Source: Escherichia coli
GTDB lineage: Bacteria > Pseudomonadota > Gammaproteobacteria > Enterobacterales > Enterobacteriaceae
Length of the DNA stretch: 64,000 nt
Assembly: GCF_046105845.1 (NCBI RefSeq)
Contig: NZ_CP151004.1
Strand: one strand, 5' to 3'
The position numbers and the translations under genes were made by a program. Below are positions 19,699-25,786 of the stretch, piece by piece; position 1 is the first letter of the stretch; each line of letters starts with the position of its first letter. The notes beneath the pieces were generated by a model, which was not told where the DNA came from, did not search any database, and saw only the letters and a program-made list of their open reading frames with translations.

Positions 19699-21936
19699 GT
19701 GGACTGGCTTCTTGATGTTTTTGCTACCTGGCTCTACGGCTTAAAAGTAATCGCGATAACGTTAGCGGTCATCATGTTCATCAGCGGGCTGGACGATTTT
19801 TTTATTGATGTCGTCTACTGGGTACGCCGCATTAAACGCAAGTTGAGTGTTTATCGCCGCTACCCGCGAATGAGTTACCGCGAACTGTATAAACCAGATG
19901 AAAAACCGTTAGCGATTATGGTTCCGGCGTGGAATGAAACGGGCGTCATCGGCAATATGGCCGAGCTGGCGGCGACCACGCTCGACTATGAAAACTATCA
20001 TATCTTTGTTGGCACCTACCCCAACGACCCCGATACTCAGCGTGATGTTGATGAAGTGTGCGCTCGCTTCCCAAACGTGCATAAGGTAGTCTGCGCGCGT
20101 CCTGGCCCCACCAGCAAAGCCGACTGCCTGAACAACGTGCTGGACGCCATCACCCAGTTTGAGCGTAGCGCCAATTTCGCTTTTGCTGGTTTTATTCTGC
20201 ATGACGCCGAAGACGTAATTTCACCGATGGAATTGCGTCTGTTCAACTATCTGGTCGAGCGTAAAGATCTGATTCAGATCCCGGTATACCCATTCGAACG
20301 CGAATGGACGCACTTCACCAGCATGACTTACATTGATGAGTTTTCAGAACTGCATGGCAAAGATGTTCCGGTGCGTGAAGCCCTCGCCGGACAGGTGCCC
20401 AGCGCAGGCGTCGGTACTTGTTTCAGCCGCCGCGCCGTGACCGCACTGTTAGCTGACGGTGACGGTATTGCTTTCGACGTGCAGAGTCTTACTGAAGATT
20501 ACGACATTGGTTTCCGCCTGAAAGAAAAAGGTATGACGGAAATTTTTGTCCGTTTTCCGGTGGTGGACGAAGCCAAAGAACGCGAGCAGCGTAAATTTTT
20601 ACAGCACGCACGGACGTCAAACATGATCTGCGTGCGCGAATATTTCCCCGATACCTTTTCGACTGCGGTTCGACAAAAATCTCGCTGGATCATCGGCATT
20701 GTTTTCCAGGGCTTTAAAACCCACAAATGGACCTCCAGCCTGACGCTGAACTACTTTCTCTGGCGCGACCGCAAAGGGGCAATCAGTAACTTTGTCAGCT
20801 TCCTCGCGATGCTGGTGATGATCCAGCTTTTGCTGTTACTGGCGTATGAAAGTTTGTGGCCCGATGCCTGGCATTTCCTTTCTATTTTCAGCGGCAGCGC
20901 ATGGTTAATGACCCTGCTGTGGCTAAACTTTGGTTTGATGGTTAACCGCATCGTGCAGCGGGTGATTTTTGTCACTGGCTACTACGGTCTGACGCAGGGG
21001 CTGCTATCTGTCCTGCGTCTTTTCTGGGGCAACCTGATTAACTTCATGGCCAACTGGCGCGCGTTAAAACAGGTACTTCAACACGGCGATCCACGTCGCG
21101 TCGCGTGGGATAAAACAACGCATGACTTCCCCAGCGTGACTGGCGATACCCGCTCGTTGCGCCCGTTAGGCCAAATTCTGCTGGAAAATCAGGTCATCAC
21201 TGAAGAACAACTCGATACAGCACTGCGTAATCGCGTCGAAGGTCTACGCCTGGGCGGTTCAATGCTGATGCAGGGGCTGATTAGCGCCGAACAGCTGGCA
21301 CAGGCGCTGGCAGAGCAAAACGGCGTGGCGTGGGAGTCGATCGACGCCTGGCAGATCCCTTCATCACTGATTGCCGAAATGCCGGCCTCCGTGGCGCTGC
21401 ATTATGCAGTACTGCCGCTGCGTCTGGAAAATGATGAGTTAATTGTCGGCAGTGAAGATGGTATTGACCCGGTTTCGCTGGCGGCCCTGACGCGTAAAGT
21501 CGGATGCAAAGTGCGTTACGTCATTGTTCTGCGGGGACAAATTGTCACGGGGTTACGCCACTGGTATGCGCGCCGACGCGGTCACGATCCGCGGGCAATG
21601 TTGTACAATGCGGTTCAGCATCAGTGGCTCACGGAACAGCAGGCCGGTGAAATCTGGCGGCAATATGTGCCGCATCAGTTCCTGTTCGCCGAAATACTGA
21701 CCACGCTCGGTCATATTAATCGTTCAGCAATTAACGTGTTGTTATTGCGCCATGAACGTAGTTCTCTGCCGCTCGGCAAGTTTTTGGTCACCGAAGGCGT
21801 TATCAGCCAGGAAACGTTGGATCGCGTCCTGACAATTCAACGCGAATTACAAGTTTCGATGCAATCACTATTACTCAAAGCAGGTTTAAACACAGAACAG
21901 GTTGCGCAACTGGAGTCCGAAAATGAAGGAGAATAA
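19699..21936 (+). CDS. nfrB: NfrB: inner membrane family-2 glycosyltransferase with a C-terminal cyclic-di-GMP-binding (MshEN-type) domain; phage N4 adsorption protein B (745 aa, GTG start)
   Basis: ORF 19699..21936; MDWLLDVFATWLYGLKVIAIT...; GTG at 19699; followed by nfrA and ybcH as in E. coli. Confidence 0.9.
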   Translation: MDWLLDVFATWLYGLKVIAITLAVIMFISGLDDFFIDVVYWVRRIKRKLSVYRRYPRMSYRELYKPDEKPLAIMVPAWNETGVIGNMAELAATTLDYENYHIFVGTYPNDPDTQRDVDEVCARFPNVHKVVCARPGPTSKADCLNNVLDAITQFERSANFAFAGFILHDAEDVISPMELRLFNYLVERKDLIQIPVYPFEREWTHFTSMTYIDEFSELHGKDVPVREALAGQVPSAGVGTCFSRRAVTALLADGDGIAFDVQSLTEDYDIGFRLKEKGMTEIFVRFPVVDEAKEREQRKFLQHARTSNMICVREYFPDTFSTAVRQKSRWIIGIVFQGFKTHKWTSSLTLNYFLWRDRKGAISNFVSFLAMLVMIQLLLLLAYESLWPDAWHFLSIFSGSAWLMTLLWLNFGLMVNRIVQRVIFVTGYYGLTQGLLSVLRLFWGNLINFMANWRALKQVLQHGDPRRVAWDKTTHDFPSVTGDTRSLRPLGQILLENQVITEEQLDTALRNRVEGLRLGGSMLMQGLISAEQLAQALAEQNGVAWESIDAWQIPSSLIAEMPASVALHYAVLPLRLENDELIVGSEDGIDPVSLAALTRKVGCKVRYVIVLRGQIVTGLRHWYARRRGHDPRAMLYNAVQHQWLTEQQAGEIWRQYVPHQFLFAEILTTLGHINRSAINVLLLRHERSSLPLGKFLVTEGVISQETLDRVLTIQRELQVSMQSLLLKAGLNTEQVAQLESENEGE

Positions 21937-24895: not shown

Positions 24896-25786
24896 ATGCG
24901 TAAGTTCATTTTCGTATTGCTGACACTGCTTTTGGTCAGCCCTTTTTCCTTTGCGATGAAAGGTATTATCTGGCAACCACAAAACCGTGATAGTCAGGTT
25001 ACCGATACCCAGTGGCAGGGGCTGATGAGTCAGTTACGTTTGCAAGGCTTCGATACCCTGGTTTTGCAATGGACCCGTTACGGCGATGCATTCACCCAGC
25101 CAGAACAGCGCGCGTTATTGTTTAAGCGTGCCGCAGCTGCGCAACAGGCTGGCCTGAAGCTGATTGTCGGGCTGAATGCCGATCCGGAATTTTTTATGCA
25201 CCAGAAACAGTCATCCGCGGCGCTGGAAAGCTATCTTAATCGCCTGCTGGCTGCCGATCTCCAGCAAGCCAGATTATGGAGCGCCGCGCCTGGCGTAACG
25301 CCGGATGGCTGGTACATCAGCGCGGAAATTGACGACCTGAACTGGCGCAGCGAAGCCGCCCGTCAACCTTTGCTGACATGGTTAAACAACGCGCAGCGGT
25401 TGATTAGCGATGTTTCAGCAAAACCGGTTTATATCAGTAGTTTTTTCGCCGGAAACATGTCGCCCGATGGCTATCGCCAACTGCTGGAACACGTTAAAAC
25501 AACCGGCGTTAATGTCTGGGTACAGGATGGCAGCGGCGTGAATAAACTTACCGCTGAACAGCGTGAACGTTATCTACAGGCCAGCGCCGATTGCCAAAGT
25601 TCCGCCCCTGCCAGCGGCATTGTTTATGAACTGTTTGTCGCCGGCAAAGGCAAAACCTTTACAGCGAAACCGAAACCGGATGCAGAGATCGCCTCGCTGT
25701 TAGCGAAACGTTCCTCTTGCGGTAAAGACACGCTCTATTTCTCTCTGCGCTATTTGCCCGTCGCGCACGGCATTCTCGAGTATTAA
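24896..25786 (+). CDS. ybcH: YbcH: periplasmic protein co-operonic with nfrBA (296 aa)
   Basis: ATG immediately follows the nfrA stop (taaatg); signal peptide MRKFIFVLLTLLLVSPFSFA. Confidence 0.88.
   Translation: MRKFIFVLLTLLLVSPFSFAMKGIIWQPQNRDSQVTDTQWQGLMSQLRLQGFDTLVLQWTRYGDAFTQPEQRALLFKRAAAAQQAGLKLIVGLNADPEFFMHQKQSSAALESYLNRLLAADLQQARLWSAAPGVTPDGWYISAEIDDLNWRSEAARQPLLTWLNNAQRLISDVSAKPVYISSFFAGNMSPDGYRQLLEHVKTTGVNVWVQDGSGVNKLTAEQRERYLQASADCQSSAPASGIVYELFVAGKGKTFTAKPKPDAEIASLLAKRSSCGKDTLYFSLRYLPVAHGILEY

Follow-up and report, generated by a model that had tools for sequence, protein, structure and literature searches.

An intact nfrB-nfrA-ybcH operon in Escherichia coli that very probably encodes a synthase-dependent exopolysaccharide system

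Three genes on the plus strand fill positions 19699-25786 of the window, the whole 64,000-nucleotide stretch of Escherichia coli DNA that was analysed. The first, nfrB (19699-21936), opens with GTG and encodes a 745-residue protein assigned as an inner-membrane family-2 glycosyltransferase (GT2) synthase with a cytoplasmic MshEN receptor for c-di-GMP. The second, nfrA (21923-24895), encodes a 990-residue outer-membrane export protein and phage N4 receptor made up of a signal peptide, a periplasmic TPR region, and a C-terminal NfrA_C domain, and the third, ybcH (24896-25786), opens with ATG and encodes an exported DUF4434 protein of 296 residues with a predicted glycoside-hydrolase-type (beta/alpha)8 barrel. 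The longest frame of the middle gene opens at a TTG at 21902; we place its start at the ATG at 21923, since the resulting 990-residue NfrA matches the NCBIfam model from 1 to 990 of 990 positions and agrees with the K-12 annotation. The coordinates bear out the arrangement proposed by an earlier, sequence-only reading of this DNA: the nfrB stop codon ends at 21936, giving a 14-nt overlap with nfrA, and the nfrA TAA (24893-24895) is followed without a gap by the ybcH ATG (24896-24898; junction sequence TGGTAAATGCGT). The overlap and the abutment suggest that the three genes may be translationally coupled.

That reading had also taken the locus to be intact, and it is. None of the three genes contains an internal stop, their lengths are exactly those of MG1655 b0569, b0568, and b0567, and all three proteins pass curated NCBIfam equivalog models. 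We met no evidence that contradicts the identification of these genes as nfrBA-ybcH, and the region is very probably the chromosomal nfrB-nfrA-ybcH operon of E. coli, encoding a synthase-dependent exopolysaccharide system. It is an ordinary intact allele, and the finding is already known, having been published in 2021 (PMC8669469; PMC8669472).

NfrB matches the NCBIfam equivalog NF008411 (cyclic di-GMP-activated glycosyltransferase NfrB) with 1329.8 bits (cut-off 1170), over residues 7-728 and positions 1-722 of the 723 in the model. Its family-2 glycosyltransferase domain lies at 19906-20844 (residues 70-382; Pfam Glyco_tranf_2_3, 3.5e-35, and Glyco_trans_2_3, 2.1e-40) and carries the processive-GT2 signatures HDAED (168-172), TED (265-267), and QKSRW (326-330). 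The protein has about three clear hydrophobic segments (18-36, 365-383, and 393-411) and a weak fourth (421-439), compared with the eight helices of BcsA. Three or so helices would not suffice for a monomeric channel of the BcsA kind; NfrB may have to form an oligomer or rely on a partner. D169, D267, and W330, which were mutated in PMC8669469, are all kept; in K-12 NfrB the substitutions D169A, D267A, and W330A abolished N4 plating and did not lower NfrB levels (PMC8669469; PMC8669472).

The receptor region of NfrB begins with a pair of MshEN motifs at 21163-21318 (residues 489-540), detected by the NCBIfam c-di-GMP_motif profile at 66.4 bits (cut-off 38). The published MshEN consensus is a tandem of 24-residue motifs, RLGxx(L/V/I)(L/V/I)xxG(L/V/I)(L/V/I)xxxxLxxxLxxQ, about 5 residues apart and with 11 specified positions. 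Residues 489-512 of NfrB match at 8/11 positions and residues 517-540 at all 11, and the two motifs start 28 residues apart. The motif pair is followed at 21322-21582 (residues 542-628) by the C-terminal alpha/beta subdomain of the MshEN fold (Pfam MshEN, 1.9e-13). Searches against the PDB by sequence matched the receptor region to PilF (E = 1.3e-16), PilB, and MshE, and a model of residues 476-745 (pLDDT 88.6) was matched by Foldseek, with probability 1.00, to c-di-GMP-bound MshE (5htl) and to the GSPII-B domain of PilF (8pdk), superposing with TM scores of 0.69-0.75 normalised to the target at 26-28% identity. The model thereby reproduces the fold of the solved c-di-GMP-bound domain, in which an N-subdomain of four helices precedes the alpha/beta C-subdomain. 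The GT2 and c-di-GMP-receptor combination put forward in the sequence-only reading thus holds at the level of Pfam and NCBIfam matches and of signature motifs: the domain search that was meant to challenge it found both sets of motifs. L490, G491, L505, L509, L518, G519, and L537 in the first pair are all present and, together with D169, D267, and W330, are the residues that experiments have shown to be critical; no residue mutated in the two 2021 mBio studies (PMC8669469; PMC8669472) is missing here. In K-12, G491L and G519S in NfrB reduced N4 infection (PMC8669472), and a fragment spanning residues 414-745 binds c-di-GMP with a Kd of 1 +/- 0.35 uM (PMC8669469). Over residues 414-745, R603C is the sole difference between the NfrB encoded here and that construct. 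The present protein is predicted to bind c-di-GMP as well, with functional statements resting on the K-12 experiments (PMC8669469; PMC8669472).

A candidate second MshEN-type motif pair is found at the extreme C-terminus of NfrB, at 21682-21840 (residues ~662-714). Taken alone, the fragment 630-745 scores 46.4 bits with the c-di-GMP_motif profile (cut-off 38), aligned over 665-714, and residues 691-714 match the MshEN consensus at 10/11 positions. Of 25 homologs with identities as low as 41%, 22-25 keep the key Leu, Gly, and Gln positions of this pair, and in the model the pair forms helix hairpins (pLDDT 78-96). BLASTP of the first motif pair against the C-terminal tail gave no alignment, so the assignment draws on the profile match, motif scoring, conservation, and the model.

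The substitution R603C, at 21505-21507 in the alpha/beta subdomain, is the one amino-acid difference between this NfrB and that of K-12. A 31-mer bearing its TGC codon is present in 0/5426 complete E. coli genomes, whereas the CGC version is present in 5048. We considered R603C as a lesion and rejected this despite its rarity in E. coli: the residue at this position varies from one NfrB homolog to another (R, Q, Y, S, K, or C), with Cys in three distant ones. It falls outside both c-di-GMP-binding motifs, and an independent ENA contig encodes the identical C-terminal 270 residues, C603 included. The substitution is probably neutral, judging from these comparisons.

NfrA had been described as a long TPR-containing outer membrane protein. 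It matches NCBIfam NF007302 (phage receptor) with 1885.9 bits (cut-off 1223) over all 990 model positions, begins with a signal-peptide-like sequence (...LLSTSALA/DN), and contains TPR families (TPR_19, TPR_14, and TPR_1) at residues 60-124 and 518-705, followed by NfrA_C at residues 809-977 (1.4e-67). Residues 701-990 are rich in Gly and aromatic residues and free of Cys, a barrel-like composition, and the C-terminus (...FLTIGVHW) ends on an aromatic residue. A PDB search by sequence with residues 700-990 found no match. Modelling of NfrA is reported to give a 16-stranded barrel that resembles PgaA and BcsC (PMC8669472).

Upstream of the operon, the 149-nt cusS-nfrB intergenic region (19550-19698, plus strand) presumably holds the promoter and 5´ UTR. 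A consensus sigma-70 scan of this spacer gave no match of at least 9/12, and the best relaxed match reached 8/12. A weak AAGG precedes the nfrB GTG by 8 nt. The operon has been reported to be activated by FliA, but the best match in a sigma-28 scan (TAAAGTTT-N10-12-GCCGATAA) scored 11/16, a background value typical of other 421-nt segments of the window, so the reported dependence cannot be tied to a site. All 149 positions of the spacer are identical to K-12, compared with differences of ~2-4% in the flanking genes. We nevertheless rejected the spacer as an ultra-conserved regulatory element, since across the species the opening 149 nt of nfrB show even stronger conservation (4733 genomes versus 3708 at >=99% identity) and since a 250-nt difference profile has a local trough. 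Downstream, 11 nt past the ybcH stop, a 12-bp hairpin (25797-25823, plus strand) with a poor U tract may serve as the terminator of the operon. Its RNA folds at -19 kcal/mol (z = -3.8; none of 200 shuffled sequences folded as well), but the tail ACTTTCGCTC is not rich in T, and a scan for consensus terminators missed the hairpin.

The operon is widespread and well preserved: nfrB-nfrA-ybcH is present, and annotated under these names, in 5251/5426 complete E. coli genomes (~97%). Compared with K-12 nfrBA-ybcH (b0569, b0568, and b0567; Junkermeier & Hengge 2021, PMC8669469; Sellner et al. 2021, PMC8669472), the genes, their order, lengths, and junctions are shared, as is the synteny of cusRS, nfrBA-ybcH, and envY. 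Nucleotide divergence is 1.7-2.8%. At the protein level, NfrB matches at 744/745 positions (R603C), NfrA at 978/990 (12 differences), and YbcH at 290/296 (6 differences), and dN/dS values of 0.007 for nfrB, 0.092 for nfrA, and 0.089 for ybcH indicate purifying selection on all three genes. Past envY, the DLP12 prophage, ompT, and appY of K-12 are absent here, and the differences between the two loci are at the strain level only. The module extends to distant genomes: in Rhodanobacter the order epimerase, nfrB, nfrA, DUF4434 is kept with 4-nt overlaps, and in a JGI contig, where nfrB and nfrA overlap, the epimerase, nfrB, nfrA, and DUF4434 genes follow one another in this order too.

In the model that we favor, NfrB would reside in the inner membrane, where its cytoplasmic GT2 domain would polymerise a sugar; published work proposes ManNAc, drawn from the UDP-ManNAc that WecB makes. 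The enzyme would become active only once local c-di-GMP supplied by DgcJ occupies the tandem MshEN motif pair. The periplasmic TPR region of NfrA would take up the polymer, which would then leave through a predicted C-terminal outer-membrane barrel of NfrA, and N4 and other WecB-dependent phages would bind the glycan (NGR) first and NfrA second. YbcH, to judge from its fold and invariant residues, is probably an exported accessory glycoside hydrolase that acts on the periplasmic polymer, as a counterpart of BcsZ, PslG, the hydrolase domain of PelA, or the C-terminal domain of PgaB; such a role would explain why the gene is conserved yet dispensable. The model builds on the gene structure, integrity, domains, catalytic and binding residues, folds of the NfrB receptor and YbcH, and module conservation observed here, and takes from the K-12 literature the binding of c-di-GMP (Kd about 1 uM), the need for the glycosyltransferase and MshEN residues, the specificity for DgcJ, the dependence on WecB, and N4 adsorption (PMC8669469; PMC8669472). 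N4 needs the locus to adsorb and plate in K-12 and UTI89 (PMC8669469; PMC8669472) and in RB-TnSeq screens (10.1101/2025.09.29.679331). The polymer itself is called a 'putative ManNAc-polymer' in the literature.

Among synthase-dependent systems of the Bcs, Pga, Alg, and Pel type, this one can be likened to Bcs, with which it shares a processive GT2 (the D, DxD, TED, and QxxRW elements of both BcsA and NfrB) that is allosterically activated by c-di-GMP, an exporter of TPR repeats and a barrel (BcsC; in NfrA the barrel is predicted), and, if the predicted hydrolase role of YbcH is right, an operon-encoded periplasmic glycoside hydrolase (BcsZ). The two differ in the receptor, which is MshEN in NfrB and PilZ in BcsA, in the proposed substrate (UDP-ManNAc rather than UDP-glucose), and in that Nfr has no BcsB-like partner in E. 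coli. BcsZ, moreover, has a GH8 (alpha/alpha)6 fold, unlike the (beta/alpha)8 barrel predicted for YbcH. PgaABCD lacks an MshEN domain and binds c-di-GMP at the interface of PgaC and PgaD; in comparison with that system, YbcH has no deacetylase domain, and single-sequence and profile searches detected no similarity at the sequence level. [quoted passage not shown] However, the NfrB domain has a glycosyltransferase as its fusion partner in place of a secretion ATPase, position 10 of its first motif is Gln where the consensus and most homologs have Gly, and its candidate second motif pair has no alpha/beta subdomain of its own.

YbcH, on which the sequence-only reading made no specific statement, has its DUF4434 domain at residues 21-291. 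Junkermeier & Hengge, who describe a signal-like N-terminus without a signal-peptidase site, proposed that YbcH has no catalytic role and acts in the periplasm as a scaffold or adaptor with an inner-membrane anchor (PMC8669469), and we consider this a real, if less than even, possibility. Yet the sequence SFA/M, with an invariant A20, looks to us like a usable site. The structural model is a confident glycoside-hydrolase-type (beta/alpha)8 barrel with top structural neighbours that are all glycosidases, and invariant Glu residues at the ends of strand 4 (E144) and strand 7 (E245) have the placement of the acid/base and nucleophile of clan GH-A. Nearly all of 16 invariant or nearly invariant residues that we checked, including E144, D146, D147, Q210, D211, E245, R285, and Y286, map at or just past the C-terminal ends of strands, the active-site face of such barrels, which would be unexpected for a scaffold. 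In favor of the scaffold, YbcH lacks the Asn that canonically precedes the acid/base Glu: where clan GH-A has its N-E-P motif, YbcH reads A143-E144-I145, so we do not file it as a GH-A member and ascribe to it only a fold and a placement of residues like those of GH-A. Searches with the single sequence and with a profile of 39 family sequences matched YbcH to no solved structure, hydrolases included, and only fold comparison succeeded. Catalytically dead barrel domains occur in several exopolysaccharide systems, which we count for the scaffold too. Phenotypes of ybcH are partial (PMC8669469; 10.1101/2025.09.29.679331), and our literature search met a single, unrelated paper on DUF4434 and, for the function of YbcH after 2021, only RB-TnSeq fitness data (10.1101/2025.09.29.679331). 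From the modelled fold and the invariant residues, we take YbcH to be a probable hydrolase of the polymer in the periplasm, and less likely a scaffold.

Two other readings concern the locus as a whole. An older model, in which NfrA (an outer-membrane receptor) and NfrB (an inner-membrane entry factor) are themselves the protein receptors of N4 and no polysaccharide is involved, lives on in names such as 'Bacteriophage N adsorption protein A C-term' for the NfrA domain and 'phage receptor' in NCBIfam, and current literature does keep NfrA as the terminal receptor (PMC8669472). We regard it as very improbable, given the complete processive-GT2 catalytic signatures of NfrB, the loss of N4 plating in the K-12 catalytic mutants, the need for WecB and not for the remaining ECA pathway (PMC8669469; PMC8669472), and the UDP-GlcNAc 2-epimerase gene that accompanies nfrB in distant genomes. 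The locus could also be intact in structure and silent in function in this strain, through R603C, a defective dgcJ or wecB, or a lack of transcription. The absence of the TGC codon from the 5426 complete E. coli genomes, the lack of a recognisable promoter upstream, and the location of dgcJ and wecB outside the window would allow for this, as would the nfrB or dgcJ lesions reported for certain strains, all B strains among them (PMC8669472). The variability of position 603, its place outside the binding motifs, and the recurrence of C603 in a second contig speak against a harmful substitution, however, while the low dN/dS of nfrB argues for continued selection and the spacer upstream of nfrB does not differ from that of K-12, a strain that expresses the operon. 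A silent locus thus appears improbable, though not as remote as the purely protein receptor.

Returning to the exopolysaccharide system, one extension is tentative and, in our judgment, rather unlikely in full: NfrB may be a two-site receptor, in which the second motif pair binds a second c-di-GMP or docks DgcJ and so localises the signal, and YbcH may belong to a new glycosidase family, as a catalytically active hydrolase that trims the NGR polymer or sets it free. The second motif pair, the two-site receptor, and the YbcH-hydrolase idea do not appear in those portions of PMC8669469 and PMC8669472 that the search covered. The putative catalytic residues of YbcH and the second MshEN-type motif pair of NfrB are leads for the field. 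With regard to phage biology, the strain should be sensitive to N4 if dgcJ and wecB are intact. The locus is the entry route of N4-like phages and of several other WecB-dependent phages, and is a textbook case of local c-di-GMP signalling.

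All three genes of the nfr locus were found on the plus strand where the sequence-only reading had placed them: nfrB (19699-21936; GTG start, 745 aa), nfrA (21923-24895; 990 aa, TAA at 24893-24895) and ybcH (24896-25786; ATG start, 296 aa). The longest frame of the middle gene opens with a TTG at 21902; the product starting at the ATG at 21923 covers positions 1-990 of the 990 in the NCBIfam NfrA model and agrees with the K-12 annotation. With this start, nfrB (stop ending at 21936) overlaps nfrA by 14 nt, and the ybcH ATG lies directly 3´ of the nfrA TAA, both as described earlier. 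Given this overlap and abutment, translational coupling across nfrB-nfrA-ybcH is a reasonable inference. A GGAG lies 7 nt 5´ of the nfrA ATG, and a second is found 13 nt 5´ of the ybcH ATG. The locus is intact, as had been claimed, with no internal stop in any of the three genes and lengths exactly those of the MG1655 counterparts. Relative to K-12, we counted one amino-acid difference in NfrB (R603C), 12 in NfrA and six in YbcH. The corresponding dN/dS values (0.007 for nfrB, 0.092 for nfrA and 0.089 for ybcH) indicate purifying selection on all three genes, very strong on NfrB.

[quoted passage not shown] NfrB scored 1329.8 bits against its NCBIfam equivalog (cut-off 1170), and Pfam placed GT2 domains at residues 70-382 and MshEN at 542-628. 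The processive-GT2 signatures HDAED (168-172), TED (265-267) and QKSRW (326-330) are present, as is an MshEN element of two tandem 24-residue motifs (489-512 and 517-540), the latter matching the published consensus at 11 of 11 specified positions; the score with the NCBIfam c-di-GMP_motif model was 66.4 bits (cut-off 38). Every residue mutated experimentally is kept, namely D169, D267, W330, L490, G491 and L537 (Junkermeier and Hengge, 2021; PMC8669469) and L490, G491, L505, L509, L518 and G519 (Sellner et al., 2021; PMC8669472). Residues 476-745, modeled with AlphaFold2 (pLDDT 88.6), resemble c-di-GMP-bound MshE (5htl) and PilF GSPII-B (8pdk), with target-normalised TM values of 0.69-0.75.

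NfrA likewise fits the description of a long TPR-containing outer membrane protein, to judge from its predicted features. It scored 1885.9 bits against its equivalog (cut-off 1223), with TPR matches at 60-124 and 518-705, an NfrA_C domain at 809-977 and a signal-peptide-like N-terminus. The C-terminal third, reported from modeling to form a PgaA/BcsC-like, 16-stranded barrel in NfrA (PMC8669472), is Gly- and aromatic-rich, Cys-free and ends in Trp.

We adopt the published mechanism, for which all required elements are present in the sequence, the activities being those established by K-12 experiments. In this model, NfrB would polymerise sugar from UDP-ManNAc, the product of WecB (PMC8669469; PMC8669472), and would be active only when local c-di-GMP made by DgcJ is bound to its MshEN domain; NfrA would export the polymer, and phage N4 would bind first this glycan (NGR) and then NfrA. 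The reading of the locus as a synthase-dependent polysaccharide secretion system and N4 adsorption site is supported. The module is independently backed by two distant contigs located via YbcH homologs, both with the gene order UDP-GlcNAc 2-epimerase, nfrB, nfrA and DUF4434. The Rhodanobacter contig (YbcH homolog 44% identical) has 4-nt overlaps at both junctions, and the JGI metagenome contig (49% identical) has an overlapping nfrB/nfrA junction. In the Rhodanobacter contig (L004), the stretch at 10002-17552, downstream of the wecB-nfrB-nfrA-DUF4434 genes, encodes a pair of HipA-type toxin modules together with a gene resembling a reverse transcriptase (weak RVT_1 match) and its HTH partners; this may be a defence island or a mobile one adjoining the phage-receptor locus.

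Within the species, the 6.35-kb nfr region was found in 5251 of 5426 complete genomes, with at least 80% of it covered by a single match in 5047 of these, and RefSeq annotation of the matched regions is always nfrB, nfrA and ybcH. The window runs cusCFBA, cusRS, nfrBA-ybcH, envY, tRNA-Arg(tct), fimZ and the sfm operon, an arrangement matched in K-12 except for a DLP12 prophage segment. At 25969-27100, the argU-type tRNA-Arg(tct) (26776-26852) and fimZ come straight after envY; the K-12 cryptic prophage segment, including ompT and appY, is absent here and likewise in strain 19KM1831. Because the nearest complete genome reaches only 99.4% identity over the nfr locus (19550-25900) and 98.5% over the 24 kb downstream (26000-50000), the window comes from a lineage thinly sampled by the complete E. 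coli genomes in RefSeq. This partly accounts for the rarity of R603C: the 31-mer with TGC (Cys) at codon 603 (21505-21507) occurs in none of the 5426 genomes and the version with CGC (Arg) in 5048. C603 also occurs in a single independent ENA contig of low coverage, whose DNA shares only 96.5-98.4% identity with the window. Residue 603 lies outside the c-di-GMP-binding motifs, and the change is probably neutral, since the position varies among distant NfrB homologs, three of which carry Cys.

No convincing nfr promoter was recognized, despite the reported FliA-dependent expression of the operon. The cusS-nfrB spacer (19550-19698) holds no sigma-70 consensus match (best relaxed match 8/12), and its top sigma-28 match does not rise above background. 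All 149 spacer positions agree with K-12, with flanking genes differing by ~2-4%; we rejected this as a special feature, as a local species-wide diversity trough also spans the nfrB 5´ end. At the other end, 11 nt past the ybcH stop, a 12-bp hairpin on the plus strand (25797-25823; -19 kcal/mol, z = -3.8) has no U tract, carries a single stem difference from K-12 and could act as a terminator that is weak or needs a factor. Elsewhere in the window, two tandem minus-strand Rfam matches to sok antitoxin RNA ~500 nt apart (4676-4832, 84 bits; 5180-5336, 80 bits) imply two adjacent putative hok/sok-type toxin-antitoxin loci between entD-like and ybdK-like ORFs. The small RNAs STnc480 (48252-48318, minus), AgrB (61240-61328, minus) and ES036 (CssrF; 61811-61853, plus) also gave Rfam matches at gathering level, which lie in the part of the window with the allantoin cluster and past it.

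Motif scoring, profile search and the model together point to a second MshEN-type tandem motif pair at the extreme C-terminus of NfrB (residues ~662-714; 21682-21840, plus strand). The motif at 691-714 (PLGKFLVTEGVISQETLDRVLTIQ) scores 10/11, and fragment 630-745 alone gives 46.4 bits with c-di-GMP_motif (curated cut-off 38; aligned 665-714) and aligns with PilF GSPII modules (E = 7e-8). The motifs start at ~662 and 691, a 29-residue register compared with 28 in the first pair, and are modeled as short-helix/long-helix hairpins; plain BLASTP returned no alignment between the two pair regions. L692, G693, L696, V697, L707, L711 and Q714 occur in 22-25 of 25 NfrB homologs (down to 41% identity), conservation equal to that of the first pair. 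In the searchable text of PMC8669469 and PMC8669472, the first pair alone is tested and the second is not mentioned; the published Kd was obtained with construct 414-745, which includes both (PMC8669469). The second pair may serve in nucleotide binding, DgcJ docking or structure.

YbcH, a DUF4434 protein, is the least understood part of the system. It has been described as a putative periplasmic scaffold; N4 plating is unaffected by its deletion, which relieves the Nfr-dependent block on motility only in part (PMC8669469); its contribution was moderate in a 2025 droplet RB-TnSeq screen (10.1101/2025.09.29.679331). Sequence searches with YbcH detected no solved structure. By fold, the modeled (beta/alpha)8 barrel scored 19.6 with BT_0435 (4h41), 16.7 with a GH164 beta-mannosidase, 16.4 with a GH5 mannanase, 16.0 with a PgaB-type PNAG hydrolase domain (6au1) and 15.9 with a GH113 mannanase. 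The model places the invariant E144 and E245 at the ends of strands 4 and 7, where clan GH-A enzymes carry the acid/base and the nucleophile, respectively; the Asn of the N-E-P motif is absent (A143-E144). Also invariant are Q58, W59, D96, D146, D147, F183, F184, Q210, D211, R285 and Y286, and most invariant residues checked lie at or just past strand C-ends, the catalytic face of such barrels. On this basis, we think that YbcH probably hydrolyses the Nfr polymer in the periplasm. If so, it would hold the slot of BcsZ, PslG, PelA and PgaB, enzymes of a kind typically accessory in other synthase-dependent systems. SFA/M, which includes the invariant A20, resembles a signal-peptidase site, at odds with the published view that the signal-like N-terminus lacks one (PMC8669469).

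Overall, the earlier observation is confirmed and its interpretation supported, for a locus that is already known, textbook since 2021 and intact in most E. coli. The remaining value is modest and lies in the hypothesis that YbcH is a hydrolase and in the conserved second MshEN-type pair of NfrB.
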